Source: Amphiscolops sp. MND2022
Lineage: Eukaryota
Assembly: GCA_964187785.1 (NCBI GenBank)
Contig: OZ076409.1
Location: 74,774,001 to 74,838,000, forward strand
Direction of reading: 5' to 3'
DNA: 64,000 nucleotides
In this document: positions 685-32,718 of the stretch, piece after piece
Layout: each line of letters starts with the position of its first letter
How positions within the stretch are numbered: the stretch's first letter is position 1
Translations under genes and position numbers: made by a program
Notes under the pieces: model-generated
Database searches by the model: none
What the model was told of the DNA's origin: nothing
The model's input: the letters and a program-made list of their open reading frames with translations, nothing else

Positions 685-691
685 CTAGGTG
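685..691 (+). other. Invariant junction core CTAGGTG (first of 38); candidate recombination or nicking site
   Basis: Present at every unit boundary; left and right flanks assort largely independently. Confidence 0.85.
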
Positions 692-5552: not shown

Positions 5553-6951
5553 CTAGGTGGTCGGGTATTTTTTTTTACTCGTAGATGGCGTTTGCGAGGC
5601 TTTGGGGAGGGCCCCGTGCCGAGCCTGTACCGAAATTTACCACATACCAGAAGTGGTATAAATATTCGAGATCTCAAAAACTAACCGTTAGAATTCTCTG
5701 AAATTTTGCATGTGGCTCTTAATCAATGAGTAATGAAAAAGTGTAGGAGTGACGGTTGCTGAAAAAGTTGCCTTTGTTGCACTTTTTGCGCAATTTTTGT
5801 CGCATTGTTGCGTTTTTTATGTCATTTTCCACTTTGGAGGCAAAAAAGTCACAGATGCTTTGTTCCTAGCGTATCAAGTGTGGTGCACGAAAAGTTGCAG
5901 CACCTTCAATTACGTATGCTGAAAAACTTTGGTTGCCCTCGGCTTACCCCCCACAGAGATAGAGAGGTGCTTCCGGTTATTTTTGACCCCTAAATTTGGG
6001 AAAATGCTAATTTTCGTAATAAAGCTGTAGATTTAGCGTGTGCACACCCTGCAGAAGATTTGTTGGGCATTTTGAGATAGATCCGATGACATGCGTTCAG
6101 TTCACCCCCATCACCCCCTGGACCGGAAATGAACTTTTTTGTGTCCTTTCAGACCGGAAGTCTCCATTTTCAACGGTAAGGAGTCCTTGTACGAACAACT
6201 CGCAGGGCATCAAAATTGAAGTACAATGTGGGGTGAGCCTAGTTACCACGTGTTGTCCAGTCATGGGTACCGCCATGACCGGAAACGGGGTCAAAAACCC
6301 CCCTATTGGTCCTTTTTTTAATCAGTTTGACTAGTGTTTTGTCCACATTCAAGTCGCATAAGCAAATTAAACCAGTGTGAGCATAGACTGCATGTTCACT
6401 GCGTAGACGTAACTGACGCTGCCATATACCGGAAGTAACCCCCTCTGACCGGAAGTGGTCAATTTTGACCGGAAATGGTCCAAAAAGTAGCGTAAATGCA
6501 GTTTTTCTTTGCTTTTTAAGGTCAAGTTATTACTTTCTTTTCAATTTGAATGCTATTTTCCACGCAAAAAGCTAACATCGTTGCATGTTTTGCTGAAAAC
6601 CTGAAAAGTGCCCACCTTTATCACCCCCGATAGCCTTTCAAGTTTACCTTGGGTCAATCTTGAAGGCTATCTGTACTTAAAACGAAAAATAGAGTTAATT
6701 AGATTTCTCCTTTACGTTGACATTTTTCCTTCACATTAATTTGTTATGAAAAGACTTTTTTCCAACTTAAAGATCTAAAAATTGGTCAAAAGGTGCCACC
6801 CTGACAAAGATTATTTGCAATTGAAGTAAACTGAGAAAGAAGGTAGTATTAGTCGACATCACACATTTTTACCAACGCCCACCGTCTGTGGGCATGCCGA
6901 GGCATGCCCTTCGACGACGTATGCCCAATATACGCGTTAGCGCGGTAGCAG
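5553..6951 (+). mobile_element. Unit U4, type C, 1399 bp
   Basis: Head CTAGGTGGTCGGGTATTTT; GATAGCC hairpin; related to U15. Confidence 0.7.
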
Positions 6952-9328
6952 CTAGGTGGTCGGGGTGTTTCCCAGCCGTTTTGGCCGCGCGGGGAGGGAC
7001 CCGTTCAGCGGCCCAGGTAATTAAGATTTTGTCATTAAAAAAATGACCCATCCGGAAAGCGATTTCGAAACCCACCCGTAGGATCCCTCTGAATTTTTGC
7101 ATGCACCTCCGTATAACAGATGTAAGATAAAGTCAGCAAGGGCGTTTTCAGTTCTAAACGGGGAATGTTGACCAAAAAGCGCAATTTATGTCCAAAAAAA
7201 TGCAATTTTTCGACTTTTTTATTTTTGACGGCCAACAGCTCTTTTCCAGATGCCCGCCCAAGTCATAAACCGGAGTAAGCTTTTGTTGGGCACTTCGTGA
7301 AGAATCTTTAGGGTGATTTTCGTTTCATTCCTATTTCCTGACGTTGACTTATGGTTGGTTGAAAAAACGCAACATTTGTTACAAAAAGTGCTTTTGGTAC
7401 TCAAGGGCCCATAACTCGTGACATAATCAATTGAGCAAGTTCGTGTATAATTACGATTTTGTTGCCTATCTATAGGAGAACAAACAAGCAGGAATAAAAT
7501 TTTCTGTGGGAAGACGTCAAAAAAAGATATCAAAGGTTTTATACTCAATAAAATGGTGTTTTTCGATTATCGTGGAAAAAATGTAAAAGGGTGGCATTTT
7601 TCGGCTGTTCAAGGTAGCGGGTATTTCATTGCAGTTAATAACTCACCTCTAGTAGTCATTTACTTGGATGATTTTCAATGTTGATAAATTGCATGATAAA
7701 CTTCATTTTTTGCGTCACCAATATTGACACCCACGATTTCAGTCAATTTTTTCGCGTTCACGTTTTTGAGTGGATATAACTTTTTTCCAGTGCGTTTTAC
7801 GGTCATCATCCAGGAGCACAAAATTGTTGGCCGTCTTAAGCAGAAAATATATGGTAAGTTTAGAGTCATTTGAAACGTTTTTGAAATGTCCAGAGATGCA
7901 CAAATTTACAGTTTTTTTGCCCACAAAACACTTTTTTACGAAACAAAAACACTTTTTGCCAAAAAAGTCAAACTTTGTCCACACAACTTAGATTGCAAGT
8001 GAATGCATGCGGAGAGTACTTGAAATGATGGGAAAAATGAGCTATAGAACGCTCATTTACGACAACCTGACGTGGACTTAGGATAATTTGAAAAAGTACG
8101 AAAAAAAAGAACAACGGTTCCAAAACAATCAGTTTGTAGTAAATGGCCAATAACTCCATACACAACCCTCCGCGCAAGCTGGTGTCCAAGTACGTTTTTG
8201 TTACCCGTGAATAGTGCAACAAATAAGTAAAAGTAAAACTTTATGTAGAGAATCGTCGGAGAAAGAAATAACGGGATTTTTTATCACATTTAAGAGACAA
8301 AATTGAAAAATTAGTCTATTCCTGGCATTTTACCTAAACTTTTTCGACAGTACACATACAGGAGGTAAAATTCGTCCAATATCATGCCTAACAAAACTAT
8401 TTGATCCATTGGTCGCAATTTGAGCGTTCCACCTTTCCCCAGTCATAAATTATGGGACTTCGAAAATTTTCAAAAGTTCCATTTTTCAACAAAATTTCAA
8501 ATTCAGGCCTCCCAAAGGTAAGAAAGTTCCACACAACTAGGATTGCAAGTGGTTGCATGTGGAAAGTGCTCGAACCGACAAGAAAAATGGGCTTTAGAAC
8601 GTCTCTCTATCGTAACCTGACGTTGACTTATGATGTTTTGAATGTGATACTGCTACGTGCTCGAGAAGTGTAAGTGGAACATATGTCTCGTTGAATACTC
8701 ATCGGAATACATTCAATGAACCCAATCACCCTAAATTGCAGTTTCCTAGTGCAACAACGTCTGTCAAGGACCTTTTTTGATAAGAGTCGAAATTATTATT
8801 AAATTCAGTTAGCAAGAAACACTTGAGTACATTCTCATCTCTCCCCATCGGGGGAGATGAGAATGTACTTGCTAAAACGGCTTCTTTGTTTTCATGCGAT
8901 GGATTCTGTGCCTTGCCACACATATAACTTTGTTTTGTGTGACCTTGCGTATATACTTTGACTTGTCATAATAAATTTCTTCTCGTAAATTTACGTAAAT
9001 CAACAATGCATCTACAATGCACCTTCAACGTCAAAGCCAAATAAATATAGCTGGCCACCGTCCGTAGGCAGAGCAAGGCATGCTTTTTGACGACGTATGC
9101 CGAAACACAAACGCGAACAAAACTGCTGAAAATCAGAAACAGTGACCAACAATTTTGACTGTTTGACATATGGTAGGTTTTTATATGGAACTTACACATC
9201 ACTGATATTTCACAACATTTCAGCTGACGCCCACCTACCACTATCAACGCGCACCGTCAGTGGGCATGCCGAGGCATGCCCTTCGACGACGTATGGCTAA
9301 TACCTTCAGCGACGCCCCCGCGCTCCCC
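6952..9328 (+). mobile_element. Unit U5, type D, 2377 bp
   Basis: Head CTAGGTGGTCGGGGTGTTTCCCAGCC; near-identical to U11. Confidence 0.7.
8825..8870 (+). repeat. Long bulged inverted repeat GAGTACATTC..CATCTC/GAGATG..GAATGTACT (example)
   Basis: About 20-bp stem, present in all types except A, C and H. Confidence 0.85.
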
Positions 9329-10716
9329 CTAGGTGGTTGGGGCGGTCCCCAGAACGCACAAGGAGGCGCGGGGAGGGTCCTGCGCCGACGTAGAATAATT
9401 TCATATAATACTAGTATCCTACATGGGTGTTTTAGAGGCGATTTTGGAATCTAACCGTAGGATTTGGATAATTTTTTGCATGCGGCCATAACTCGAAATT
9501 CTAAGAACTTTTTCTTACTGTCATTTTCCCCGCAAATTGTTTTTCGTTGACTTATGGCCGAAAAACCGGAAATAACGTCCTTTTTAGACGTTATATCCGA
9601 AGTGTCGTCATAACTTTTTTCCAGGGCATGCTAGCGTTCTCGTTCACTTTTACACTTAGTTGCAGCATCTCAAAATACAACTGGTGGAAAATTTTGGTTG
9701 CATTCGGATCACCCCCCACCGAGATAGTAGGGTTCCCCCCTCCAGTTTTACCCCCCAAATTTGCAAAATAGCCAATTTTGAGCATGAAGCCGAGGATTTA
9801 GCGTACCCGCACCCTTCTGATGTTTTGTTGTACGTATTGGGGTCAATCTGACCACATGTGTGGTTTTCACCCCCAACCCCCCCTGGGACCGGAAATGACA
9901 TTTTTTTGTGTTTTTTGGCAGAATTTAGCCTTTTTCATTATTAGGCAGTCGTTTTAGGGACTCTTAGCAGGATATCGAAATTGAAATACAACCTGATCAC
10001 AACCCAGTGACAACATGTTGGCCACTTGGAGGTATCATCATGACCGGAAGTGGGGTCAACCCCCCTTTTTGTGACCGCTTTTTGACCTTGTGCACCAAAA
10101 TGCCAACATCTTGAGGCCTAATGAGGCATTCAAATCTGTACAAAGATAAAATGTTAGACAACCGAAGTCCCGGAAGATCTTTAGCATATACCGGAAGTTA
10201 CCCCCCATGACCGGAAGTTACCCAATGTGACCGGAAATGGTCCAAAAATTAATGTAAAGTTGAATTTTTCACTACTTCAAGACCACTTAATTGAAACTTT
10301 TCAATCTCAAAACTAGTGTACTGGCTTGTTTTGCTGAATTTATGGAAATTGATGAGCTCTATCGCCCCCGATAGCCTTCGAAGTTGACCTTCCGTCAACT
10401 TTGGAGGCTATCGATAAAGAAAAATGAACAACAAAGTACATTGTTGCTCTCGTTTTTTCCCGTTGTTTTTCCTCAAACATTCTTGAGACATATACATGGC
10501 CGTTAGTTGAAATCAATATTTAGGCCATGTTATAGCTGGAGCAGCGAAGCGTTACACAGACTAGTGTGGTTTTGAAATCACACTATTTAAATTAACAACT
10601 GACCGTCTTAGTCAACTCCACACATTCATACCAACGCCCAACGTCTGTGGGCATGCCGAGGCATGCCCTTCGACGACGTATGACGAATCCATTCCAACGA
10701 CACCCGCAGTCCTCAG
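9329..10716 (+). mobile_element. Unit U6, type A, 1388 bp
   Basis: Near-identical to U2 and U16. Confidence 0.7.
10369..10413 (+). repeat. Alternative long inverted repeat CGATAGCCTTCGAAGTTGAC/GTCAACTTTGGAGGCTATCG of A and C units (example)
   Basis: 20-bp stem with two G-T pairs and a 5-nt loop. Confidence 0.85.
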
Positions 10717-12004
10717 CTAGGTGGCCGGAAATTTTTTTTTTCATCAAAATCTTTGCCATTGGGGGAGGGGCCCCGGATGGCCAGTAGTACGGGATAGCTT
10801 CCTACCAAATCCAGATGGAAAAAACGTGATTTCGGAAACTAGCCGTCAGAATTTGCTCAAATTTTGCATACGGCTTCCTATGACAATCCTAAGAACTAAT
10901 CCCCACTGGCATTTTGCCCAAAAAACGCAAAAAGTTGGTCAAAATCTTAGTTTTTTGGTCAAAAAATGGCAATTTTTCGAAAAAAATTTTTTTCAGAGAC
11001 AATTACTCGTAACTGGTTCACCCAGCGCAATAACGCCTAGCTGATTTATTGTTGGGCACTTCATGAGGAGTGCGTATACAGTTTTTCGTCCAGATCGGAA
11101 AAAAATTGACTAAGTATTAGCCGGAATTCGGACGCATTTTTTCGCAAATTTTTGAAAACCTAGTCTATCTCTGCCGTTTTTTGCCCAGATTTTTTTCCAG
11201 GTCCTCTCCTAAAGGCCTCCCCTGGCCGGTTTACTTCCCAGAAAAACCATTTGGCCCTAAATACGGAGTTTCAGCGTTCTAGCATTCCCGGGCGAAAAGA
11301 TGTGGGACTTAGAAAAAATTCAAAATTTTTCAAAAATTTTTTTTTTCGTTTTCCGGCCCCCCAATGAAGGGGAACGACCCCCCAACGAGGATTGTTGGTG
11401 AATTCACGTGGAAAGGCCTTGTTTTGTGGAGCAAATTGCCGTTTAGAGCGACTTTTTATCTTAACTTGACGTTGACCTCTGTCGTTTTGAATTTGATATT
11501 AGTATGTGTTGAGCATGTGAAAAGTTGATGATTTCAGTTGTTCTCTCGTGTTCAAGCCATTGAGATACAAGCGGTAGTGATCAAAATGTGATTTATCGCA
11601 ATTTGGTGGTGCTTTTGGTGTATTTTGATTCTTTTAAATAAAAAGTTGTTCTTTATATATTTGGTGTATTGATTCAAATGAACAAGAAACAGTTGAGTAC
11701 ATTTCATCTCCCCCCTTGTGGGGGAGATGAGGATGTACCCGCTAAATGACACGCACAATGGCCCAATTTTATTTTTATGCGACGTTCTCTAGGCTTTTGC
11801 GCAAGCCCACTAAAATTTAGACTGGTTTCCTTTTCTTTTACTCCAAAATTTTCCGTACTAACCACCTTACGCACCACCAGCTCAACGTAACATCTGTAAC
11901 GTCAACGCCACACACTCTCACTAACGCCCACCGTCCGTGGGCATGCCGAGGCATGCCCTTCGACGACGTATGCCAAATAGCGCCATAGGGCGCAAACTTG
12001 TCCG
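10717..12004 (+). mobile_element. Unit U7, type F, 1288 bp (single copy here)
   Basis: Head CTAGGTGGCCGGAAATTT; has the head hairpin, GAGTAC hairpin and terminal palindrome. Confidence 0.7.
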
Positions 12005-14382
12005 CTAGGTGGTCGGGGTGTGTTTCCCAGCCAATTTTGCCGCGCGGGGAGGGACCCGTTCAGCGGCCCAGGTCATTATTTTTTTACATTAAAAAAAACG
12101 ATACCCCGGAAAGCGATTTCGAAACCCACCCGTAGGATCCCTCTGAATTTTTGCATACACCTCCGTATAACAGATGTAAGAAAAAGTCAGCAAGGGCGTT
12201 TTCAGTTCTAAACGGGGAATGTTGACCAAAAAGCGCAATTTATGTCCAAAAAAATGCAATTTTTCGACTTTTTTATTTTTGACGGCCCATAGCGTTTTCC
12301 CAGATGCCCGCCCAAGTCATAAACCGGAATAAACTTTTGTTGGGCACTTCGTGAAGAATCTTTAGGGTGATTTTCGTTTCAATCCTATTTCCTGACGTTG
12401 ACTTATGGTTGGGTGAAAAAACGCAACATTTGTCACAAAAAGTGCTTTTGGTACTCAAGGCCCCATAACTCGTGACATAATCAATTGAGCAAGTTCGTGT
12501 ATACCTACGATTTTGTTGCCTATCTCTAGGAGAACAAACAAGGGGAAACAAAATTTTCTGTGGGAAATCGTCAAAAAAAGATATCACAGGTTTTATACTC
12601 AATAAAACAGTGTTTTTCGGTTATCGTGGAAAAAAAGTAAAATAGTGGCATTTTTCGGCTGTTTAAGGTAGCGGGTATTTTATTGCAGTTATTAACTCAC
12701 CTCTAGTAGTCATTTACTTGGATGATTTTCACTTTTGATAAATTGCATGATAAACTTCATTTTTCGCGTCACCAATATTGACACCCACGATTACAGTCAA
12801 ATTTTTCGCGTTCACGTTTTTGAGTGGATATAACTTTTTTCCAGTGCGTTTTACGGTCTTCATCCAGGAGCACAAAATTGTTGGCCGTCTTAAGCAGAAA
12901 ATATATGGTAAGTTTAGAGTCATTTGAAACGTTTTTGAAATGTCCAGAGATGCACAATTTTACAGTTTTTTTGCCCACAAAACACTATTTTACGAAACCC
13001 AACACTTCTTGCCAAAAAAGTCAAACTTCGTCCACACAACATAGATTGCAAGTGGATGCATGCGGAGAGTACTTGAAATGATAAGAAAAATGAGCTATAG
13101 AACGCTCATTTACGACAACCTGACGTGGACTTAGGATAATTTGAAAAATTACGAAAATAAAGAACAACGGTTCCAAAACAATCAGTTTGTAGTAAATGGC
13201 CAATAACTCCATACACAACCCACCGCGCAAGCTAGTGTCCAAGTACGTTTTTGTTACCCGTGAACAGTGCAACAAATAAGTAAAGGTAAAACTTTATGAA
13301 GAATATCGTCAGTGGAAGAAATAACGTGATTTTATGTCACATTTGAGTGACAAATTTGAAAAATTAGTCTATTCCGGGCATTTTACCTAAACTTTTTCGA
13401 CAGTACACATACAGGGGGTAAAATTGGCCAAATATCATGCCTAACAAAACTATTTGATCCATTGGCCGCAATTTGAGCGTTCCACCTTTCCCCAGTCATA
13501 AATTATGGGACTTCGAAAATTTTCAAAATTTCCATTTTTCAACAAAATTTCAAATTCAGGCCCCCCAAAGGTAAGAAAGTTCCACACAACTAGGATTGCA
13601 AGTGGTTGCATGTGGAAAGTACTCGAACTGACGAGAAAAATGGGCTTTAGAACGTCTCTCTATCGTAACCTGACGTTGACTTATGATGTTTTGAATGTGA
13701 GATTGCTACTGGGTCGATAAGTGTAAGTGGAACATATGTCTCGTCGAAAACTCATCGGAATACATCCAATGAACCCCAATCACCCTCAATTGCAGTTTCC
13801 TAGTGCAACAACGTCTGTCAAGGACCTTTTTTGATAAGAGTCGAAATTATTATTAAATTCAGTTAGCAAGAAACACCTGAGTACATTCTCATCTCTCCCC
13901 ATCGGGGGAGATGAGAATGTACTTGCAAATTGGCCTCATTTGTTTTCATGCGAGGCATTCTGTGCTTTGGCACACATAGATAACTTTGTTTTGTCTGTCT
14001 TTTTGCATATACTTTAAATTGTCATTAGAAATTTGCCGACTTTACTTTACGTAAAATTAACTTTCTACCATGCACCTTTAACGTCAAAGCCACATAAATT
14101 TAGACTCCTATCATCGAAAAACATACCGCGGCATCTTTTTCGATGACGTATGCCGAAACACAAATGTGAAAAAAAGTGATGAGATTCAGAAACAGTGACA
14201 AACAATTTTTACTATTTGACATAAGGTAGGTTTTTATATGGACCTTACACATCACTGATATTTAATAACAATCCAGCTGACGAACACATACCAACATCAC
14301 CGCCCACCGTCCGTAGGCATGCCGAGGCATGCCTTTCGACGACGTATGCCTAATCCATTCCTCCGACGCCCCCACTCCGCCC
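12005..14382 (+). mobile_element. Unit U8, type D, 2378 bp
   Basis: Near-identical to U13; variant palindrome AGGCATGCCGAGGCATGCCT. Confidence 0.7.
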
Positions 14383-15769
14383 CTAGGTGGTCGGGGCGGT
14401 CCCCAGAACGCACAAGGAGGCGCGGGGAGGGTCCTGCGCCGACGTAGAATAATTTCATATAATACTAGTATCCTACATGGGTGTTTTAGAAGCGATTTTG
14501 GAAACTAACCGTAGGATTTGGATAATTTTTTGCATGCGGCCTTAACTCGAAATTCTAAGAACTTTTTCCTACTGTCATTTCCCCCTCAAATTGTTTTGTG
14601 TTGACTTATGGCCGAAAAACCGGAAATAACGTCCTTTTTAGACGTTATATCCGAAGTGTCGTCATAACTTTTTTCCAGGGCATGCTAGCGTTCTTGTTCA
14701 ATTTTACACTTAGTTGCAGCATCTCGAAATACAACTGGTGGAAAATTTCGGTTGCATTCGGATCACCCCCCACCGAGATACAAGGGTTCCCCCCTCCAGT
14801 TTTACCCCCCAAAATTGCAAAAAAGCCAATTTTGAGCATGAAGCCGAGGATTTAGCGTACCCGCACCCTTCTGATGTTTTGTTGTAAGTATTGGGGTCAA
14901 TCTGACCACATGTGTGGTTTTCACCCCCAACCCCCCCTGGGACCGGAAATGACATTTTTTGTGTTTTTCGGCGGAAATTAGCTTTTTTTCTTTAGTAGGC
15001 AGTTGTTTTAGGGACTCCTAGCAGGATATCGAAATTGAAATACAACCTGATCACAACCCAGAGACAACATGTTGGCCATTTGGAGGTACAATCATGACCG
15101 GAAGTGGGGTCAACCCCACTTTTTGTGACCGCTTTTTGACCTTGTGCACCAAAAGGCCAACAACTTGAGGCCTAATGACGCATTCAAATCTGTACAAAGA
15201 TAGAATGTTAGACAACCGAAGTCCCGGAAGCTCTTGAGCATATACCGGAAGTCACCCCCCATGACCGGAAGTTACCCAATGTGACCGGAAAAGGTCCAAA
15301 ATTTAATGTAAAGTTAATTTTTTCACTATTTCAAGACCACTTCGTTGAACGTTTTCAATCCCAAAACTAGCGTTTTGGCTTATTTTGTGAATTTATGGAA
15401 ATTGATGAGCTCTATCACCCCCGATAGCCTTCGAAGTTGACCTTGCGTCAACTTTGGAGGCTATCGAATCTGAAAATGAACAACAAAGCACATTGTTGCT
15501 CTCGTTTTTTTCCGTTGTTTTTTCTCAAACATTCTTGAGACATATACATGGCCGTTAGTTGAAATCGATATTTTAGGCCATGTTATAGCGGGAGTAGCGA
15601 CGCGTTACACAAGCTAGTGTGGTTTTGAACTTACATTATTCAAGATAACAAATGATCGTCTTAGTCAACGCCACACATTCATACCAACGCCCACCGTCTG
15701 TGGGCATGCCGAGGCATGCCCTTCGACGACGTATGAGGAATCTACTCCAACGACGCCCGCAGTCCTCAG
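14383..15769 (+). mobile_element. Unit U9, type A variant, 1387 bp
   Basis: Head CTAGGTGGTCGGGGCGGTCCCCAG; same tail as other A units. Confidence 0.7.
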
Positions 15770-17958
15770 CTAGGTGGAGGTTATTTTATAATAATTAAAG
15801 TGTTTTTTTCCGGAGTTTGTGGCTTTGGAAAAAACAAAAGGCGAGAAATTGGGCACTCCGGGCTGAACCGTATACACTCAAAATTCGCCCAATATTTATA
15901 CGATCTCGAAACCCAGCCGTACGATTTGGCTGAAAATTTGCATGCGGCTAAAAAATCAGATTCTAAGAACTATTTCCTGCTGACATTTTTTTGAAATTTT
16001 TGTGTACGTTTCCCCCCCGCCCCCTAAAGGGGTCAATTTTCCCCAATTTTGCACTTATGAGTCAAATTCTCAAAACTGGTGGATCTGAGCGTATTCCCAG
16101 CGGAGACAACTTTTAACGAGCGCTCTTCAGTAGACCTTTTTGACTTTTTACTTTGGTGGTAGGTTCACCCCCCAAGGAGGAAATGGCTTTTTTGTGACTT
16201 CCGGTCGAGACTTTTTTCACCCAAAAAATAGAAATAAGCCAGTTTTGAGCAGGAAGGAGTGGATTTGAAGTGTCTGTACCCTTCTAAAAATTTGTTGGGC
16301 TTGTAGCGATATATCTCATACCAAGTCTGGTTTTCACCCCCAAACCCCCCTTGGGACCAAAATTCACCCAAACTTTTTTACCTCTGTTTGTAGTTTTTTT
16401 GCAAATTGTCGTCATTTCCATGGGTAAAGAGTTGAATTAGGGGCTCCTAATAGGGTACCAATATTCAAGTACACTTGCAGTGCAACTGAGTGACCCTTGT
16501 TGGGCCTCTCGTGTGCTCGGCAAGGACCGGAAGTGGTGTAAACCCCCCTTTTTTGACGTTTGTTGACCTTGAGTCTCGCGCTTAGATGACGTTTATGTCG
16601 CGCAAGTCCTACAAACCAGTATTCGGATGACACGCTAGCCAACTAGAGAGCAATACGGGAAACCATAACATACCGGAAGTAACCCTCCGTGACCGGAAGT
16701 TGTCATTTTTGGCCGGAAATGGTCCAAAACCTAGCGTAAAAGCAGTTTTTCTTTGCTTTTAAAGTCAACTTATTACAATTTTCAATCTGCGCGAGCTTGT
16801 CCTAAGGTTCGTTCTGTTGCCAGTGCACACTTTAACAAATATACATCTGTAAAATTTTCGCTATAATATCGTCGGAGAGAGAAATAACGGGTTTATGGGA
16901 CTTTTTTCAAAAACGATAGTCTGTATCTGTCTTTTTTACCCAACGTTTTTCAACAGTAGAACCACAGGGGTTAGTCTCTGCCCAAATATATGCCTAACAA
17001 AACCAGTTCACCCATTGGTTGCAATTTGAGCGTTCTAGCTTTGCCAGGTCACAAGTTATGAGACTTGAAAAGTTTCCAAAATTTTTTCCGAAAATTTGTT
17101 TCTAAACTTCATGTCTCCCAAAGTTAAGAATCTTCCGCACAACTAGGATTGCAAGTGAATGCATGTGGTAGAACCTTTAAATGGAGAGAAAATATCCGTA
17201 TAGAACGTCTCTTTATCGTATTTTGACGTCGAGAGATGTTGCTTTGAATGCCAGCTTGATAAGACGTCGAGTAGTAACAGTGTGTAAATGGAACATATGT
17301 CTCAACAAATACTCATCGGAATACATGCGATGAAACCCAATTACCCTCAATTTCAGTTGCCTAGTACAACAACGTCTTCCAAGGAACTTTTAATCTTTTT
17401 GAGAAGTGTTGAAGTCATCATTAAATTCAGTTAGCAAGAAACAATTGAGTACATTCTCATCTCTCCCCATCGGGTGAGATGAGAATGTTCTTGCTAAAAG
17501 CCAGGTACTACTGCCCAATTTTGTTTTATTGCGACGCATTCGGTGCTTTAGCACATAGATACTTTTATTCCGTCTCACGTTTTGTATACACTCTGATTTG
17601 TTGTTATAAATTTCTCGTCATTACTTTACATAAACTAACTACAATCGTGAACTTCAACGTCATAGCCAAATTCATTTAGACGCCCACCTTTCCGTGGGTA
17701 TGCCGAGGTATGCCTTTCGAAGACGTATGTCAAAACGCAAATGCGATAAAAAAGGTGCTGATATTCGGAAACAGTGACAAACAAATTGACTATTTGATAT
17801 TTGGTAGGTTTTTATATGGAACTTACACATCACTGACATTTCAAAACATTCCAGCTGACGGCCACATACGAACATCAACGCCCACCGTCCGTGGGCATGC
17901 CGAGGCATGCCCTTCGACGACGTATGGCAAATACCTTCATCGACGCCTCCACATTCCC
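15770..17958 (+). mobile_element. Unit U10, type B variant, 2189 bp
   Basis: B head; the last ~30 bp are D-like. Confidence 0.7.
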
Positions 17959-20334: not shown

Positions 20335-22709
20335 CTAGGTGGTCGGGGTTGTTCCCAGCCGTTTTGGCCGCGCGGGGAGGGACCCGTTCAGCGGCCCTGG
20401 TAATTAAGATTTTGTCATTGAAAAAAATGACCACCCGGAAAGCGATTTCGAAACCCACCCGTAGGATCCCTCTGAATTTTTGCATACACCTCCGTATAAC
20501 AGTTGTAAGAAAAAGTCAGCAAGGACGTTTTCAGTTCTAAACGGGGAATGTTGACCAAAAAGCGCAATTTATGTCCAAAAAAATGCAATTTTTCGACTTT
20601 TTTATTTTTGACGGCCCACAGCTCTTTTCCAGATGCCCGCCCAAGTCATAAACCGGAGAGAACTTTTGTTGGGCACTTCGTGAAGAATCTTTAGGGTGAT
20701 TTTTGTTTCAATCCTATTTCCTCACGTTGACTTCTATGTGACGCAATTAGGTGACAAATTCGGTAAAAAAACGCAATTTTGGTACTCAAGGGCCCATAAC
20801 TCGTTACAGAGTCAATTTAGCAAGTTCATTTACTTTTACGTTTTTGTTGCCGATCTATGGGCAAACAATTAAGCAAGAACAAATTTTTCTGTGAAACATC
20901 GTCAAAAAAAGATATCACAGGTTTCAAAAACGCAAAAAATGTACTTTTTTGGATTTTGTGGAAAAAATAGAAAAAGGTGGCATCTACCGGCTGTTTCAGG
21001 TAGCGGATATTTTATTGCAGTTAATAACTCACCTTTAGTAGTCATTTACTTGGATGGTATTTGACTTTGATAAAAGGCATGATAACTTTCATTTTTCGCC
21101 TCACCAATATTGACACCCACGACTACAGTCGATTCGTCGAATTCACGTATTTAACTGGACATAACTTTTTTCCAGAGCGTTTTACGGTCCTCACACAGGA
21201 GTGCAAAATTGTTGCCCGTCTTAAACGGAAGGCATATAGTGAGTTTAGAGTAATTTGAAACGTTTTTGACATGTCCAGAGATGCACAAATTTACAGTTTT
21301 TTTGCCCACAAAACACTATTTTACGAAACCGAACACTTTTTGCCAAAAAAGTCAAACTTCGTCCACACAACTTAGATTGCAAGTGGATTCATGCGAAGAG
21401 TACTTGAAATGACGAGAAAAATGAGCTAAAGAACGCTCATTTACGACAACTTGACGTGGACTTAAGATAATTTGAAAATCACAAAAAAAGAACAACGATT
21501 CCAAAACAATCAGTTTGTAGTAAATGGCCAATAACTCCATACACAACCCTCCGCGCAAGATAGTGAACAAGTACGTTTTTATTACCTGTAAGCAGTGCAA
21601 CAGATAAGCGGAAGTAAAACTTTATGTAGAAAATCGTCGGGGAAAGAAATAACGGGATTTTATATCACATTTAGGTGACAAAATTCAAAAATCAGTCTAT
21701 CCATGGCATTTTCCCTAATATTTTTCGACAATACACCCACACGGGGTGAAATCTGCCTAAAATTGTGCCTACTAATACTATTTGATCCTTTGGCCACAAA
21801 TTGAGCGTTCTAGTTTTCCCAGTAAAAATTTATGGGACTTCGAAAATTTTCAAAATTTCCATTTTTCTACAAAATTTTAACTTCAGGCCTCCCAAAGTTA
21901 AGAAAGTTCCACACAACTAGGATTGCAAGTGGATGCATGTGGAAAGTACTCGAATAGACGAGAAAAGAGGGCTATAGAACGTCTCTCTATCGTAAGCTGA
22001 CGTTGACTTATGACGTTTTGAATGTGAGTTTGCTAAGGTGTCGAGAAGTCAAAATGTGTAAGTGGAACATATGTCTCGTCGAAAACTCATCGGAATACAT
22101 TCAATGAACCCCAATTACCCTCACTGTTAGTTGCGTACTGCAACAACGTCCTTCGAGGTCCTTTTTTGATAAGTGTCGAAATCATTATTAAATTCAGTTA
22201 GCAAGAAACACTTGAGTACATTCTCATCTCTCCCCATAGGGGGAGATGAGAATGTACTTGCTAAAATGGCCTCCTTGTTTTCATGCGATGGATTCTGTGC
22301 TTTGCCGCATATACAACTTTGTTTTATGACTTTTGGTATTTACTTTTTCTTGTCATTATAAATTTCCTTTTCCTACATTTACGTAAAATTAACTTTCTAC
22401 CATGAGCCTTTAAAGTCAAAGCCAAATAAATTTAGAAGCACACCATCCTTAGGCATGGCAAGGCATGTTTTTTGTTGACGTATACCAAAACTCAAATGCG
22501 ACCAAAAGTCCTGAAATTTACAATCAGTGACAAACAATTTTGACTATATGACATATGGTAGGTGTTTATATGGAACCTTCTCTGATATTTCAAAAAATTC
22601 CAGTTGACGCCCACATACCATCATCAACGCCCACCGTCCGTGGGCATGCCGAGGCATGCCCTTCGACGACGTATACCAATTACCCTCTTACCGACGCCCC
22701 CGCCCACCT
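20335..22709 (+). mobile_element. Unit U12, type D variant, 2375 bp
   Basis: D head; diverged interior related to U19/U20/U25. Confidence 0.7.
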
Positions 22710-25087
22710 CTAGGTGGTCGGGGTGTGTTTCCCAGCCAATTTTGCCGCGCGGGGAGGGACCCGTTCAGCGGCCCAGGTCATTATTTTTTTACATTAAAAA
22801 AAACGATACCCCGGAAAGCGATTTCGAAACCCACCCGTAGGATCCCTCTGAATTTTTGCATACACCTCCGTATAACAGATGTAAGAAAAAGTCAGCAAGG
22901 GCGTTTTCAGTTCTAAACGGGGAATGTTGACCAAAAAGCGCAATTTATGTCCAAAAAAATGCAATTTTTCGACTTTTTTATTTTTGACGGCCCATAGCGT
23001 TTTCCCAGATGCCCGCCCAAGTCATAAACCGGAGTAAACTTTTGTTGGGCACTTCGTGAAGAATCTTTAGGGTGATTTTCGTTTCAATCCTATTTCCTGA
23101 CGTTGACTTATGGTTGGGTGAAAAAACGCAACATTTGTCACAAAAAGTGCTTTTGGTACTCAAGGCCCCATAACTCGTGACATAATCAATTGAGCAAGTT
23201 CGTGTATACCTACGATTTTGTTGCCTATCTCTAGGAGAACAAACAAGGGGATACAAACTTTTCTGTGGGAAATCGTCAAAAAAAGATATCACAGGTTTTA
23301 TACTCAATAAAACAGTGTTTTTCGGTTATCGTGGAAAAAATGTAAAATAGTGGCATTTTTCGGCTGTTTAAGGTAGCGGGTATTTTATTGCAGTTATTAA
23401 CTCACCTCTAGTAGTCATTTACTTGGATGATTTTCACTTTTGATAAATTGCATGATAAACTTCATTTTTCGCGTCACCAATATTGACACCCACGATTACA
23501 GTCAAATTTTTCGCGTTCACGTTTTTGAGTGGATATAACTTTTTTCCAGTGCGTTTTACGGTCTTCATCCAGGAGCACAAAATTGTTGGCCGTCTTAAGC
23601 AGAAAATATATGGTAAGTTTAGAGTCATTTGAAACGTTTTTGAAATGTCCAGAGATGCACAAATTTACAGTTTTTTTGCCCACAAAACACTATTTTACGA
23701 AACCCAACACTTTTTGCCAAAAAAGTCAAACTTCGTCCACACAACATAGATTGCAAGTGGATGCATGCGGAGAGTACTTGAAATGATAAGAAAAATGAGC
23801 TATAGAACGCTCATTTACGACAACCTGACGTGGACTTAGGATAATTTGAAAAATTACGAAAATAAAGAACAACGGTTCCAAAACAATCAGTTTGTAGTAA
23901 ATGGCCAATAACTCCATACACAACCCACCGCGCAAGCTAGTGTCCAAGTACGTTTTTGTTACCCGTGAACAGTGCAACAAATAAGTAAAGGTAAAACTTT
24001 ATGAAGAATATCGTCAGTGGAAGAAATAACGTGATTTTATGTCACATTTGAGTGACAAATTTGAAAAATTAGTCTATTCCGGGCATTTTACCTAAACTTT
24101 TTCGACAGTACACATACAGGGGATAAAATTGGCCAAATATCATGCCTAACAAAACTATTTGATCCATTGGCCGCAATTTGAGCGTTCCACCTTTCCCCAG
24201 TCATAAATTATGGCACTTCGAAAATTTTCAAAATTTCCATTTTTCAACAAAATTTCAAATTCAGGCCCCCCAAAGGTAAGAAAGTTCCACACAACTAGGA
24301 TTGCAAGTGGTTGCATGTGGAAAGTACTTGAACTGACGAGAAAAATGGGCTTTAGAACGTCTCTCTATCGTAACCTGACGTTGACTTATGATGTTTTGAA
24401 TGTGAGATTGCTACGGGGTCGAGAAGTGTAAGTGGAACATATGTCTCGTCGAAAACTCATCGGAATACATCCAATGAACCCCAATCACCCTCAATTGCAG
24501 TTTCCTAGTGCAACAACGTCTGTCAAGGACCTTTTTTGATAAGAGTCGAAATTATTATTAAATTCAGTTAGCAAGAAACACCTGAGTACATTCTCATCTC
24601 TCCCCATCGGGGGAGATGAGAATGTACTTGCAAATTGGCCTCATTTGTTTTCATGCGAGGCATTCTGTGCTTTGGCACACATAGATAACTTTGTTTTGTC
24701 TGTCTTTTTGCATATACTTTAAATTGTCATTAGAAATTTGCCGACTTTACTTTACGTAAAATTAACTTTCTACCATGCACCTTTAACGTCAAAGCCACAT
24801 AAATTTAGACTCCTATCATCGAAAAACATACCGCGGCATCTTTTTCGATGACGTATGCCGAAACACAAATGTGAAAAAAAGTGATGAGATTCAGAAACAG
24901 TGACAAACAATTTTTACTATTTGACATAAGGTAGGTTTTTATATGGACCTTACACATCACTGATATTTAATAACAATCCAGCTGACGAACACATACCAAC
25001 ATCACCGCCCACCGTCCGTAGGCATGCCGAGGCATGCCTTTCGACGACGTATGCCCAATCCATTCCTCCGACGCCCCCACTCCGCCC
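22710..25087 (+). mobile_element. Unit U13, type D, 2378 bp
   Basis: Near-identical to U8. Confidence 0.7.
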
Positions 25088-26361
25088 CTAGGTGGCCGGG
25101 AACTTTTTTTCCTGCATTTTTCTGTCCAATTGGGGGAGGGGCCCCAAGTGGCTGTTATCCGGTTTTACTACCTACCCTAAACACGCTCAAAAAATGACGA
25201 TCTCGAAAACCACCCCTTAGATTTTCCTGAAACTTTGCATACAGGCCTAGAATCAAATCCTAAGAACTATTTCCTACTGGCGTTTTTCCGAATTTTTTCA
25301 AAAAGTTGGTCAAAAATGCAACAAAAGTTGCCAATGGACATAAAAAACGCAACTTTTCGACTTTGAGGGCTCATAACTTTTTCCAGAGTGCCCGGAGCAA
25401 TTCACACAGTGAGAACAATATTGCTCAGCATTGTTGGAGGAGTGCGTGGACAAATTTGGGGTTGAATTGGATGAAAATTGACTGAGAAATAAACGAAAAT
25501 TTTGGTGCATTTGTTGCAAATACCAGTTTATCTCTGCCATTTTCGCCCAAAATTTTTCCCAGAGCCTTTACAGGAGGCAACCCCTGCCCAAATTTCTGCC
25601 GAGCAAACCCTTTTGGCCCTAAATACGAGGTTTCAGCGTTCTAGCATTTCCTGGCAAAAAGTTGTGAGACTCAGAAAAATTTCAAAAAAACGCAAAAATT
25701 GTAAAAATTAACTTCTGGCGTCCCAAAGTCAAAAAACTTTCACACAACTAGTATTGCAAGTGAATGCATGTGGAAAGTACTTGCATAGACGAGAAAAATG
25801 AGCTATAGAACGACTCTGTAGCTTAATCTGACGTTGACTTATGACATTTTGAGTGTGAGCTTCCTATAGGATTTTAATGTCAAAAATGAGATTTTGTAAG
25901 TCATGTCTAATCAAAAACTCATCGGAATACGTTCAATCATCCCCATAGCTGTTCAATTACAGTGGCTCAGTAGAGCAACGCCATTTAATGTCCTTGGACC
26001 CATTTTGAAAATTTTCCTTACCGTCTTATTCGTCCGATATCACGAAACAGTTGAGTACATTCCATCTCCCCCCTTGTGGGGGAGATGAGAATGTACTCGC
26101 CAAAGACCTGATACAGTGGCCCATATTGAGTTTTATTTGACTTTTCTCACGATATTGCACACGGATAGCTGTGTTTGGTAAAAGTTTTCCTTTGCACAAT
26201 GTCTCCAGAAGCTAAACCACTTCTTTAGCTTACACTTCTACTCAAACATCACCAACGTCAACGCCACATACTCGCATCAACGCCCACCGTCCGTGGGCAT
26301 GCCGAGGCATGCCCTTCGACGACGTATGCCAAATAGCGCCACAGGGCGCCCCCAATTTCCG
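25088..26361 (+). mobile_element. Unit U14, type G, 1274 bp (single copy here)
   Basis: Head CTAGGTGGCCGGGAACTTTT; shared motifs present. Confidence 0.7.
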
Positions 26362-27751
26362 CTAGGTGGTCGGGTATTTTTTTTTACTCGTAGATGGCGT
26401 TTGCGAGGCTTTGGGGAGGGCCCCGTGCCGAGCCTGTACCGAAATTTACCACATACCAGAAGTGTCCGATTTAATCGAGATCTCAAAAACTAACCGTTAG
26501 AATTCTCTGAAATTTCGCATGTGGCCCCTAATCAATGAGTAATGAAAAAGTGTAGGAGTGACGGTTGCTGAAAAACTTGTCTTTGTTGCACTTTTTGCGC
26601 AATTTTTGTCGCATTGTTGCGTTTTTTATGTCATTTTCGACTTTTCAAGCAAAAAACTCATAGATGCTTTGTTCCTAGCGTATCAAGTGTGGAGCACGAA
26701 AAGTTGCAGCATCTTCCATTACGTATGCTGAGAAAATTTGGTTGCCCTCGGATTACCCCCCACAGAGATAGAGGGGTGCATCCGGGTGTTTTTGACCCCT
26801 AAATTTGGGAAATTGCTAATTTTCGTAATAAAGCCGTAGATTTAGCGCGTGCACACCCTGCTGAAGATTTGTTAGGCATTTTGAGATAGATCCGATGACA
26901 TGCGTTGAGTTCACCCCCATCACCCCCTTGACCGGAAATGAACGTTTTTGTGCACTTTCAGACCGGAAGTCTCCATTTTCACCGGTAAGGAGGCATTGTA
27001 CGAGCAACTAGCAGGATATCAAAAGTGAAGTATAACCTGGGGTCAACTTAATGACCACGTGTTGTCCAGTCATGGGTTTCGCTATGACCGGAAATGGGCT
27101 TAAAACCCCCTTTTGGTAGTATTTTTATCAATTTTCCTTGTGCTTGGTCCACATTCAAGTTGCGTAAGTCAGTTGAACCAGTGAGAGCATAAAATATATA
27201 TTCACTGCGTAGTCGTAACTGACACTGCCAGATACCGGAAGTAACCCCCTGTGACCGGAAGAGGTCAATTTTGACCGGAAATGGTCCAAAAAGTAGCGTA
27301 AATGCAGTTTTCAAGGCTTTTTAAGGTCAAGTTATTAGTATCTTTCAATTTGAATGCTTTTTTCCACGCAAAAAGCTAACATCGTTGCATGTTTTGCTGA
27401 AGATCGGAAAAGTGATTACCATTATCACCCCCGATAGCCTTTCAAGTTGACCTTTGGTCAATCTTGAAGGCTATCTGTTCTGAAAACGAAAAATAGTGGA
27501 ATTTTGTTTCCTCCTTTCTCTTGATATTTTTCCTTCAAGTCAATTTGTCAAAAAAAAGACATTTGTTCAACTGAGTTATCTGAATCCTGTCCAGAGGTGT
27601 CACCCGGACGAATACCATTTCAAGCTGAAGTACACAAATCAGGGTAGTATTAGACATCACACACTCCTACCAACTCCCACCGTCTGTGGGCATGCCGAGG
27701 CATGCCCTTCGACGACGTATGCCAAATAGCGCTACAGGGCACCCACATTTG
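26362..27751 (+). mobile_element. Unit U15, type C, 1390 bp
   Basis: Same head as U4 but a different tail. Confidence 0.7.
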
Positions 27752-29133
27752 CTAGGTGGTTGGGGCGGTCCCCAGAACGCACAAGGAGGCGCGGGGAGGG
27801 TCCTGCGCCGACGTAGAATAATTTCATATAATACTAGTATCCTACATGGGTGTTTTAGAGGCGATTTTGGAATCTAACCGTAGGATTTGGATAATTTTTT
27901 GCATGCGGCCATAGCTCGAAATTCTAAGAACTTTTTCCTACTGTCATTTTCCCCGCAAATTGTTTTTTGTTGGCCGAAAAACCGGAAATAACGTCCTTTT
28001 TAGACGTTATATCCGAAGTGTCGTCATAACTTTTTTCCAGGGCATGCTAGCGTTCTCGTTCACTTTTACACTTAGTTGCAGCATCTCAAAATACAACTGG
28101 TGGAAAATTTTGGTTGCATTCGCATCACCCCCCACCGAGATAGAAGGGTTCCCCCCTCCAGTTTTACCCCCCAAATTTTCAAAATAGCCAATTTTGAGCA
28201 TGAAGCCGAGGATTTAGCGTACCCGCACCCTCCTGATGTTTTGTTGTACGTATTGGGGTCAATCTGACGACATGTGTGGTTTTCACCCCCAACCCCCCCT
28301 TGGACCGGAAATGACACTTTTTTGTGTTTTTTGGCAGATTTTAGCCTTTTTCATTATTAGGCAGTCGTTTTAGGGACTCCTAGCAGGATATCGAAATTGA
28401 AATACAACCTGATCACAACCCAGTGACAACATGTTGGCCACTTGGAGGTATCATCATGACCGGAAGTGGGGTCAACCCCTCTTTTTGTGACCGCTTTTTG
28501 ACCTTGTGCACCAAAATGCCAACATCTTGAGGCCTAATGAGGCATTCAAATCTGTACAAAGATAAAATGTTAGACAACCGAAGTCCCGGAAGATCTTCAG
28601 CATATACCGGAAGTTACCCCCCATGACCGGAAGTTACCCAATGTGACCGGAAATGGTCTAAAAATTAATGTAAAGTTGAATTTTTCACTATTTCAAGACC
28701 ACTTAATTGAAACTTTTCAATCTCAAAACTAGCGTACTGGCTTGTTTTGCTGAATTTATGGAAATTGATGAGCTCTATCGCCCCCGATAGCCTTCGAAGT
28801 TGACCTTGCGTCAACTTTGGAGGCTATCGATAAAGAAAAATGAACAACAAAGTACATTGTTGCTCTCGTTTTTCTCCCGTTGTTTTTCCTCAAACATTCT
28901 TGAGACAAATACATGGCCGTTAGTTGAAATCAATATTTAGCCCATGTTATAGCTGGAGCAGCGAAGCGTTACACAGACTAGTGTGGTTTTGAAATCACAC
29001 TATTTAAATTAACAACTGACCGTCTTAGTCAACTCCACACATTCATACCAACGCCCACCGTCTGTGGGCATGCCGAGGCATGCCCTTCGACGACGTATGA
29101 CGAATACACTCCAACGACAACCGCAGTCCTCAG
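27752..29133 (+). mobile_element. Unit U16, type A, 1382 bp
   Basis: Near-identical to U2/U6. Confidence 0.7.
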
Positions 29134-30525
29134 CTAGGTGGTCGGGGCGGTCCCCAGAACGCACATGGAGGCGCGGGGAGGGTCCTGCGCCGACGTAGAA
29201 TAATTTCATAAAATACTATTATCCTACATGGGTGTTTTGGAAGCGATTTTGGAACCTACCCGTCAGATTTGGATAATTTTTTGCATGCAGCCATAACTCG
29301 AAATTCTAAGAACTTTTTCTTTCTGTCATTTTCCCCGCAAATTGTTTTTTGTTGACTTATGGCCGAAAAACCGGAAATAACGTCCTTTTTAGACGTTATA
29401 TCCGAAGTGTCGTCATAACTTTTTTCCAGGGCATGATAGCGTTCTCCTTCACTTTTACACTTTGTTTTAGCATCTCAAAATACAACTGGTGGAAAATTTT
29501 GGTTGCATTCGGATCACCCCCCACCGAGATAGAAGGGTTCCCCCCTCCAGTTTTACCCCCCAAAATTGAAAAAATACCAATTTTGAGCATGAAGCCGTGG
29601 ATTTAGCGAATCCTCACCCCCCTGATGTTTTGTCGGACATGTTAGGGTCAATCTGGTGACATGTGTGGTTTTCACCCCCAACCCCCCCTGGGACCGGAAA
29701 TGACACTTTTTTGTGTTTTTTGACAAAAATGAGCCTTTTTGATTAGTAGGGAGTCGTTTTTGGGCCTCCTAGCAGGATATCGAAGTTGAAATACAACTTG
29801 ATCACAACCCAGTGACAACATGTTGGCCAGTTGCAGGTACCATCATGACCGGAAGTGGGGTCAAACCCCCCTTTTTGTGACCGCTTTTTGAACTTGTGCA
29901 CCAAAATGCCAACAACTTGAGGCCTAATGACGCATTCAAATCTGTACAAAGATAGAACGTTAGACAACGGAAGTCCCGCAAGCTCTTTAGCATATACCGG
30001 ACGTCACCCCCCATGACCGGAAGTTGTCCAGTATGACCGGAAATGGTCCAAAAATTCATGTAAAATTAACTTTTTCACTTATTGAAGACCACTTCGTTGA
30101 ACATTTTCAATCCCAAAACTAGCGTACTAGCTGGTGGCGTTGAATTTATGGAAACTGAGGAGCTTTATCACCCCCGATAGCCTTCGAAGTTGACCTTGCG
30201 TCAACTTTGGAGGCTATCGATTCTGAAAATGAACAACAAAGTACTTTGTTGCTCTCGTTTTTTTTTTCCGTTTTTTTCCTCAAATATTGTTGAGACATAC
30301 ACATGGCCGTTAGTTAAAATCAATATTTTAGCCCATGTTATAGCGTGAGTAGCGAAGCGTTACACAGGCTGGTGTGGTTTTGAACTGTAATTATTTTAAA
30401 CTAAAAAAAGACCCTCTTAGTCAACTCCACACATTCATACCAACGCCCACCGTCTGTGGGCATGCCGAGGCATGCCCTTCGACGACGTATGACGAATCCA
30501 TTCCAACGACACCCGCAGTCCTCAG
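29134..30525 (+). mobile_element. Unit U17, type A variant, 1392 bp
   Basis: A head and tail with a more diverged interior. Confidence 0.7.
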
Positions 30526-32718
30526 CTAGGTGGAGGTTATTTTATAATAATTAATGTGTTTTTTTCCGGAGTTTGTGGCTTTGGAAAAAACAAAAGGCGA
30601 GAAATCGGGCACTCCGGGCTGAACCGTATACACTCAAATTTCGCCCATTTTTTATACGATCTCGAAACTCAGCCGTACGATTTGGCTGAAAATTTGCATG
30701 CGGCTACAAATTGAGATTCTAAGAACTATTTCCTGGTGACATTTTTTTGAAATTTTTGTGTACGTTTCCCCCCCGCCCCCTAAAGGGGCCAATTTTCCCC
30801 ACTTTTGCACTTATGAGTCAAATTCTCAAAACTGGTGGATCTGAGCGTATTCCCGCCGGGGACAACTTTTAACAAGCGCTCCTCAGTAGACCTTCATGAC
30901 TTTTTACTTTGGTGGTACGTTCACCCCCCGAGGAGGAAATTGCGTTTTTGTGACTTCCGGTCGAGGCTTTTTTCACCCAAAAATTAGATTTAAGCCAGTT
31001 TTGAGCAGGAAGGAGTGGATTTAAAGTGCCTGTACCCTGCTAAAAATTTGTTGGGCTTGTAGCGATATATCTCATACCAAGTCTGGTTTTCACCCCCAAA
31101 CCCCCCTTGAGACCAAAATTCACCCAAAGTTTTTTACCTCTGTTTGTAGTTTTTTTACCGAATATCGTCATTTCCATGGGTAAGGAGTTGAATTAGGGGC
31201 TCCTAATAGGGTACCAATGTTCAAGTACACTTGCAGTGCAACTGATTGACCCTTTTTGGGCCTCTCCTGTGTTCGGCAAGGACCGGAAGCGGTGTAACCC
31301 CCCCTTTTTTGACGTTTGTTGACCTTGAGACTCGCGCTTAGATGACGTTTATGTCGCGCGAATCCTACAAACAAGTATTAGGATGACATGCTAGCCAACT
31401 AGAGAGCAGTAAGGGAAACAATATTATACCGGAAGTAACCCCCCGTGACCGGAAGTTGTCATTTTTGACCGCAAATGGTCCAAAACCTAGCGTAAAAGCA
31501 GTTTTTCATTGCTTTTAAAGTCAACTTCTTACATTTTTCAATCTGCGCGAGCTTTTCTTCAGGTTCGTTTTTGTTGCCAGTGCACAGCAACGAATATACA
31601 ACTGTAAAATTTTCGCTATAAAATTGTCGGAGAGAGAAATAACGGATTATTTGGACTTTTTTTCAAAAATATTAGTCTACATCTGTCATTTTTACCCAAT
31701 GTTACTCAACAGTAGAACCACAGGTTTTATTCTCTGCCCAAAAATATGCCTAACAAATTCACCTGTCCCTTTGGTTGCAGTTTGAGCATTCTAGCTTTAC
31801 CTGGTCACAAGTTAGGGGACTTGAAAAAGTTTCAAAAATTTTTCCGAAAAATTTTTCTAAACGTCATGTCTCCCAAAGTTAAGAAACTTCCGCACAACTA
31901 GGATTACAAGTGAATGCACGTGGTAAGACCTGAAATTGGAGAGAAAAATTCAGTTTGGAACGTCTCTTTATCGTAACGTGACGTTAAGAGAAGTTGCTTT
32001 GAATGCGAGCTTGATGAGACGTCGAGAAGTAACAGTGTGTAAATGGAACCTATGTCTCGACAAATACTCATCGGAATACATGAGATGAACCCCAATTACC
32101 CTCAATTTCAGTTGCCTAGTACAACAACGTCTTCCAAGGACCCTTTAATCTTTTTGATAAGCGTTGAAGTCATCATTAGCTTGAGTTCGCAAGAAACAAT
32201 TGAGTACATTCTCATCTCTCCCCATCGGGTGAGATGAGAATGTTTTTGCTAAAAGCCAGGTACTACGGCCCAATTTTGTTTTATTGCGACGCATTCTGTG
32301 CTTTAGCACATAGATACTTTTATTCCGTCTCACTTTTTGTATACACTCTGATTTGTTGTTATAAATTTCTCGTCATTACTTTACATAAACTAATTACCAT
32401 AAAACTTTAACGTCAAAGCCACATTCATTTAGACGCCCACCATTCCGTAGGTATGCCGAGGTATGCCATTCAAAGATGTATGCCAAACGCAAATGCGATA
32501 AAATTAGTGCTGAAAATCGGAAACAGTGACAAACAGTTTTGACTTTTTGATATTTGTTAGGTTTTCATATGGAACTTACACATCACTGACAATTCAAAAC
32601 ATTCCAGCTGACGCTCACATACAAACATCAACGCCCACCGTCTGTGGGCATGCCGAGGCATGCCCTTCGACGACGTATAGCAAATTCCTTTAATATCTAC
32701 ACCCAATTGCGGTAGCAG
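30526..32718 (+). mobile_element. Unit U18, type B, 2193 bp
   Basis: Near-identical to U3. Confidence 0.7.

Follow-up and report, generated by a model that had tools for sequence, protein, structure and literature searches.

A mixed array of non-coding Helitron-like units in Amphiscolops that may grow by insertion at its own joints

The window analysed here is a stretch of 64,000 nucleotides (nt) from Amphiscolops sp. MND2022 (assembly GCA_964187785.1, 1.07 Gb, G000 in our coordinates), at G000:C1:74,774,001-74,838,000, C1 being contig OZ076409.1. It consists of 37 complete non-coding units and two partial ones, arrayed head to tail, which share their ends with Helitron-like transposons encoding RepHel, an HUH Rep with two tyrosines fused to a Pif1 helicase. 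We propose, with a probability of about 85%, that each unit was likely copied singly and inserted at an already existing joint between two other units, CTNG^GTG (^ marks the cut).

Units and joints of the array

The array around the window spans about C1:70.5-76.5 Mb, on one strand only, and similar arrays lie on C2, C5, C7, C8, C9 and C10. The 37 complete units measure 1.07-2.40 kb and fall into 14 families at 84% identity; no open reading frame (ORF) of at least 150 aa was found in them. The heptamer CTAGGTG occurs 38 times on the forward strand and never on the reverse strand, with 2.7 occurrences expected per strand. The features of the window are listed in Table 1. The wider counts given below come from a sample of 472 units, taken from 464 kb around the window and from six other arrays, in which a few CTGGGTG joints were missed.

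Table 1. Features of the 64,000-nt window, in window positions
Feature	Positions	Strand	Remarks
Head-to-tail array of Helitron-like units	1..64000	+	37 complete non-coding units, two partial
Unit U3	3364..5556	+	97.6% identical to U18
Joint CTAG^GTG	6952..6958	+	One of 38; upstream unit 3' end CTAG, next unit 5' end GTG; likely insertion target
Unit U5	6956..9332	+	2.38 kb; 99.1% identical to U11, neighbours differ
3' subterminal hairpin (predicted)	9262..9281	+	8-bp stem, CGAG loop; 45-75 nt from end
5' subterminal hairpin (predicted)	9365..9386	+	Conserved GG(G/T)AGGG core; outer stem family-specific yet complementary
Unit U8	12009..14386	+	99.5% identical to U13; 99.6% to a unit on C2
Unit U11	17963..20338	+	Near-copy of U5
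Unit U13	22714..25091	+	Near-copy of U8
Unit U14	25092..26365	+	First 963 bp match the 15-kb RepHel unit at C1:74,936,330 at its 5' end (90% identity)
Unit U18	30530..32722	+	2,193 bp at 100% to the unit at G000:C2:103,816,349, whose neighbours differ
Adjacent pair U19-U20	32723..37484	+	99.5% identical; possible concatemer or local re-insertion
Unit U35	59475..60737	+	Ends match those of the 14-kb RepHel unit on C5: 92% over the first 773 bp, 78% over the last 70 bp

Over 479 joints the sequence is CTNGGTG, with CTA in 442 cases, CTG in 32, CTC in 3 and CTT in 2. All 479 array heads follow CTN and all 479 begin with GTG, N being a property of the upstream family. The sequence-only reading of this DNA had mapped the exchange point between units to CTAGGTG; the breakpoint does lie at this heptamer, but the joint has to be widened to CTNGGTG, its N belonging to the upstream unit. 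Two further statements of that reading stand as made: GTCCTCAGCTAGGTG ends five units of one family (at 3352, 10709, 15762, 29126 and 30518), which are followed by families B, F, B, A and B, and the tail GCGCGTTAGC occurs eight times, followed by the families E, A, D, K, L or N.

To place the cut we used open ends, leaving out an ambiguous one (L063) and a mutated joint inside an array (L025). Among open 3' ends unselected on the fourth base, CTNG was present in 13/13. Pooling these 13 with 7 found by G-containing patterns gives 20 open 3' ends, 19 of which have T as the second flank base. CTNG also precedes 9 of 12 open 5' ends. Two of the three exceptions have a T before GTG, and the cut was therefore placed at CTNG^GTG. 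At a solo copy at C1:37.45 Mb, 10/10 empty paralogous sites read through, with no duplication and no loss. For a solo copy on C5 the empty-site paralogues, at ~73%, are too diverged to place the cut, and both flanks are contiguous. The solo-copy target is CTNG^NT, and dispersed copies thus use the same sequence as the joint itself.

A 3' subterminal hairpin is predicted in 381 of the 472 units, 45-75 nt before the end; in some tail classes the prediction gave no strong 3' fold. The predicted 5' stem covaries, since over 27 distinct heads the own arms gave 5.07 versus 3.56 for swapped arms (p=1e-9).

Genome-wide, 4,919 occurrences of the main tail motif were counted, and copies of this tail type are mostly in arrays, six being isolated among the first 100 matches listed. 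The genome is expected to contain ~7.5 million CTNGNT sites and 0.3 million CTNGGTG sites, and joints amount to ~0.1% of the expected CTNGNT sites. Tail-to-head joining was counted for the heads of one family: 171 are preceded by CTA (not individually inspected) and 8 are not, five of these eight following the tail of another unit and three being open. A mere preference for the sequence is not enough to account for the arrays, because with millions of CTNGNT sites expected this family has just those three open heads of 8 beside its 171 CTA-preceded ones. The reason why joints are favoured over millions of CTNG sites is an inference, set out with the mechanism below.

Transposase-encoding units

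RepHel is encoded by 6 of the 472 sampled units, which are 12.0-15.6 kb long and have the same ends as the short units; two have a broken reading frame, and in the C9 unit RepHel is split, likely by an intron. The nearest RepHel copy lies ~19 kb to the right of the window and none lies inside it. In one protein, P0001 (2,378 aa, C10), Helitron_like_N, PIF1 and GIY-YIG all pass the Pfam cut-offs, and the HUH (HxH) and YxxxY (two Tyr) motifs are retained. An intact RepHel lies at G000:C10:13,509,531-13,516,667. In RepHel, which belongs to the autonomous partners and not to the window, PF14214 scored 38.5 bits and PF05970 43.1 bits, both above cut-off. A search with Rep gave 124 matches in lineages 32-100% identical, of which 34 lie within C1:70.5-76.5 Mb, all on the forward strand and none with an internal stop; at four loci the Rep regions are 99-100% identical. 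A sequence search of the PDB matched the helicase only, including Helraiser at E 1e-6, and left Rep unmatched.

Window units and RepHel units have up to ~0.8-1 kb of 5' sequence in common (92% identity for U35, 90% for U14) and 70-140 bp at the 3' end, and both ends of the C9 RepHel unit recur in 13 short units. Because these ends are shared with RepHel units, the window units are non-autonomous Helitron-like elements. Three long units with the CACGTCTAG tail have an apparently intact GIY-YIG motif, whereas in the three that carry the GGCATGCC tail it looks degenerate; setting the target in cis is therefore an unlikely role for it. Downstream of RepHel, an ORF (ORF2) is conserved across five aligned units. 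Its predicted fold has a mean predicted local distance difference test (pLDDT) score of 42, with best matches to the oligonucleotide/oligosaccharide-binding (OB) folds of RPA, Teb1 and POT1 (Z at most 4.4) and Atlas matches at 0.86-0.88; the ORF may encode an RPA-like OB-fold protein, a weak indication that serves as a lead only.

Some autonomous copies show further peculiarities. Two carry an extra 219-aa ORF between RepHel and the OB-like ORF (L057:1359-2018), with no Pfam match. The units at C1:74,856,912 and C10:13,508,294 have a nearly identical Rep, the same tail, different heads and downstream ORFs that are 50% identical, which suggests module swapping. At C9:45.48 Mb (L215), an autonomous copy with a short frame shows threefold repetition of its 3' end and flank, spaced ~3.2 kb apart.

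Movement of single units and proposed insertion at joints

The sequence-only reading had named four pairs of near-identical units with different neighbours (U5/U11, U8/U13, U3/U18 and U31/U37), and all its neighbour statements were correct. Global identities are those of Table 1 for the first three pairs and 96.5% for U31/U37; the near-identity of this last pair holds overall but not in its last ~30 nt, which differ. We then looked at where identity ends in 406 pairs at least 98% identical, with 346 left and 352 right flanks bordering on unrelated neighbours. Identity is ~1.0 within the unit and ~0.3 a few bases past the heptamer, as had been anticipated, and the drops are not scattered over the tail and head motifs. 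The identical run past the heptamer has a median of 1 nt, versus 0-1 nt for random pairs. Pairs at least 99% identical number 134, of which 2 lie at edges; of the 132 others, none has both neighbours in common, 5 share one and 127 share neither. One true two-unit block has moved together in the sample, and no shared block of three units was found in it. The two units of a pair lie on different contigs in 61 of the 134 cases, and U18 equals its C2 counterpart over its whole length (Table 1). These results support single units, not blocks, as the moving entity, and recent movement, both of which had been proposed from the sequence.

The following mechanism would account for this pattern. RepHel encoded by the larger array units would copy single units out by rolling circle, and the junction of such a circle would read CTNG^GTG between two hairpins, like every chromosomal joint. 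A chromosomal joint, having the same sequence and hairpins as the circle junction, could be treated by RepHel as a cleavage substrate, so that circles would be integrated at joints in a reversal of circle formation. Every insertion would add another joint, and arrays would therefore feed their own growth; with one target common to all families, families would end up shuffled. This would correspond to an IS91-like rule, in which the target is the element's own end. For Helraiser, the accessible text of PMC5876387 describes circles with a precise end-to-end junction, the top strand of which is cleaved precisely.

Several observations weigh against insertion at joints as the full account. The case is built on genome sequence, in which no circle, activity or insertion event is observed. 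CAGT, GTAG and ATAT, not CTNG, precede three of the 12 open 5' ends, and for most window families the sampled units include no close autonomous partner. The 5 pairs with one shared neighbour exceed the 1.2 expected by shuffling, same-family neighbours are in excess on C1 (40 vs 12±3), and near-identical copies are found nearer to each other than expected at random (within 40 kb, 36% vs 16%). Given this same-family excess and this proximity, concatemers, local hopping or local recombination therefore add to the pattern. Units are also mosaics: of 1,096 pairs at least 98% identical over the first 400 bp, 138 are less than 85% identical over the last 400 bp, which is older internal exchange. No age gradient along the arrays was evident by eye. 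The main alternative is differential survival: if copies persist better in arrays, this could look like targeting. It draws on seven loci with broken or short Rep frames, none of which has a 3' end joined to a recognised head; among three loci with a long Rep frame, two are joined on both sides and the third is ambiguous.

Taken to its end, this line of thought leaves the same Helitron-like elements with a CTNG preference only, the arrays arising by rolling-circle concatemers and local hopping and the dispersed copies being lost. We consider this unlikely, even though it fits the excess of same-family neighbours, adjacent pairs as similar as U19-U20, the existence of solo copies and the open ends at broken autonomous copies. 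Missed termination is moreover described as a source of tandem Helitron arrays (PMC4067079 and PMC5876387, accessible text), and such arrays, as well as unrelated Helitrons found side by side, are ascribed to missed termination or concatemers in the accessible parts of PMC4067079 and PMC5148889. Concatemers should give identical neighbours, whereas 127 of the 132 near-identical pairs have none in common; identical units occupy precise joints in arrays of different contigs, and the joints take up only the small share of expected CTNGNT sites given above. Unequal crossover or gene conversion, shuffling units as in a satellite-like array, would find homology in the conserved tail motifs and could explain the mosaic units and the moved two-unit block. 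Crossover in the tail motif is excluded as the main process: between this ~45-bp motif and the joint lie 25-45 variable bp that stay with their own unit, and the boundaries lie at the heptamer outside the motif; the lack of shared three-unit blocks and the clean empty sites at solo insertions also speak against it. We regard this explanation as very improbable for the arrays as such, and the process itself as likely secondary.

A tyrosine recombinase acting on the 7-bp core of integron-like or Crypton-like cassettes would be suggested by a core common to all joints and by the absence of target duplication, and the genome does contain 4 PF00589 and 24 DUF3504 matches. None of these matches falls in C1:70.5-76.5 Mb or in any examined array, however, and the long units carry RepHel instead. 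Nor is the core kept as a block, N going with the upstream unit and open ends retaining just CTNG or GTG. We give this explanation almost no weight, and membership in Cryptons or integron-like elements was rejected, the autonomous units having no tyrosine recombinase. Insertion of single rolling-circle copies at existing joints is thus the reading that we retain.

Relatives, significance and other observations

With RepHel and without target duplication, the elements belong to the Helitron-like superfamily. They were compared with its two groups, HLE1 and HLE2, using the criteria set out in the accessible text of PMC11417382 and PMC4067079. With HLE1, including Helraiser, they share the HUH-Y2 Rep fused to a Pif1 helicase, the absence of target duplication, a 3' CTAG in most families, a subterminal hairpin, non-autonomous deletion derivatives and, likely, an RPA-like accessory gene downstream. 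For the 3' hairpin and CTRR end of HLE1 the picture is mixed: 474 of 479 ends read CTAG or CTGG and the other 5 CTCG or CTTG, and the main hairpin lies 45-75 nt from the end, with no strong 3' fold in some tail classes. The HLE1 definition does not fit: all 479 heads begin with GTG, not 5'-TC, the target is CTNG^NT and not A^T, and RGLPH is present as Rep motif 2 in 0/139 relatives. The mixed-family arrays of thousands of units, and 3' ends that also read CTGG, CTTG or CTCG, likewise differ from HLE1. With HLE2 (Helentron, Helitron2, proto-Helentron), the elements have in common an aromatic-x-R preceding motif 2, a hairpin at either end and a C-terminal endonuclease fused to RepHel. Some relatives carry OTU, and proto-Helentron, too, terminates in CTAG (PMC4067079, accessible text). 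The HLE2 definition does not fit either, as there is no TT (T^T) target with terminal T runs and RGSPH occurs in 0/139 relatives, although W-x-R is present. The endonuclease is GIY-YIG, not AP-endonuclease, and no Pfam match to DUF6570 or AP-endonuclease was obtained in 13 scanned proteins. Apart from a partial match of 6-8 nt, inspection of the printed termini by eye showed no asymmetric terminal inverted repeats of 12-16 nt; no search aimed at them was made. One plant HLE2 has captured a GIY-YIG and has terminal inverted repeats and TT sites, according to the accessible part of PMC11417382.

Among 186 database relatives, motif 2 is readable in 139, reading RG(S/L/T)(P/L)H in none and (G/A)NxxHxH in 123. 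A library clustered at 50% gave 383 relatives at E of at most 0.001, several with a C-terminal GIY-YIG. In a quick Rep tree, which is unrooted and has as references a few sequences from this genome only, labelled by motif, 34 GNxPH-type rows stand apart from 12 host HLE1/HLE2-type rows with a Shimodaira-Hasegawa-like approximate likelihood ratio test (SH-aLRT) value of 99; the trees come from quick searches, and the helicase tree includes two rows only ~10% filled. Motif and tree suggest a separate Rep branch with a GNxPH-type motif 2. The group could be part of the unclassified clusters, at least four in number, that HELIANO mentions. A metagenome scan returned 2 loci, too short to show ends, and a search of sequencing runs returned one run at a share of 0.05 and no RNA run, with 3/30 bins covered and no joints in them.

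Outside these two groups, the Paramecium Helitrons (PMC13085455) also form a separate, third clade with strict orientation and a target resembling their own 3' end. In the accessible text they end in CCAA and insert in C4A2 telomeric repeats, not in their own joints; the comparison is one of ends, orientation and targets. Bacterial IS91, as far as the accessible text of PMC13181058 goes, is likewise an HUH-Y2 rolling-circle element without target duplication, whose tetranucleotide target 5'-CTTG (minor CTCG, CTGG) resembles its terminal cleavage site CTCG; it is prokaryotic, has no helicase and is not described there in self-targeted arrays. Replitrons are eukaryotic HUH transposons with orientation-specific insertion too, but have a Y1 Rep without helicase and short terminal direct repeats (PMC10288648, accessible text).

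Taking these comparisons together, we lean slightly towards a broader view, in which the elements would be an undescribed major Helitron-like clade (GNxPH Rep, fused GIY-YIG, IS91-like CTNG target), the members of which in this genome would integrate site-specifically into their own joints. They would thereby build megabase integron-like cassette arrays common to many transposase lineages, a self-made safe haven and a eukaryotic HUH integration system. No description of self-targeted mixed Helitron arrays was found in the searchable literature (Repbase and subscription journals lay outside the search). The accessible parts of PMC11934779, PMC12001565 and the preprint 10.64898/2026.09.17.752431 deal with Helitron-derived repeats or centromeric Helitrons, not with shuffled arrays of whole elements. 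Target choice and the integration step of Helitrons are poorly understood; with the target and the two ends defined here, along with many intact transposases, integration can be tested directly. If the proposal is true, scarless insertion of 1-15-kb cargo at a defined joint by a eukaryotic rolling-circle transposase would be a candidate site-specific integration tool, and multi-megabase repeat blocks would form by a route other than satellite amplification.

Some minor observations were also made. Elsewhere in the genome, a DUF3504 Crypton-type tyrosine recombinase at G000:C3:2.08 Mb has in-frame 993-bp tandem copies that give a 1,055-aa open frame, and the small contig G000:C1368 carries a tyrosine recombinase unlike the Crypton matches, which is maybe not host DNA. 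Within the window, ACCGGAA(A/G)T occurs 50 times, inside units, and long internal palindromes recur across many unit families. At G000:C1:74,707,567, a 1.39-kb unit is interrupted by a 12.2-kb insert from another element, with an internal inverted repeat of ~430 bp and no ORF of at least 170 aa. Finally, minority tail classes cluster at G000:C1:74,960,385-75,002,500 and C8:25.64-25.67 Mb (49 adjacent pairs vs 25±3 when shuffled), hinting at a lineage-specific joint preference or at bursts.

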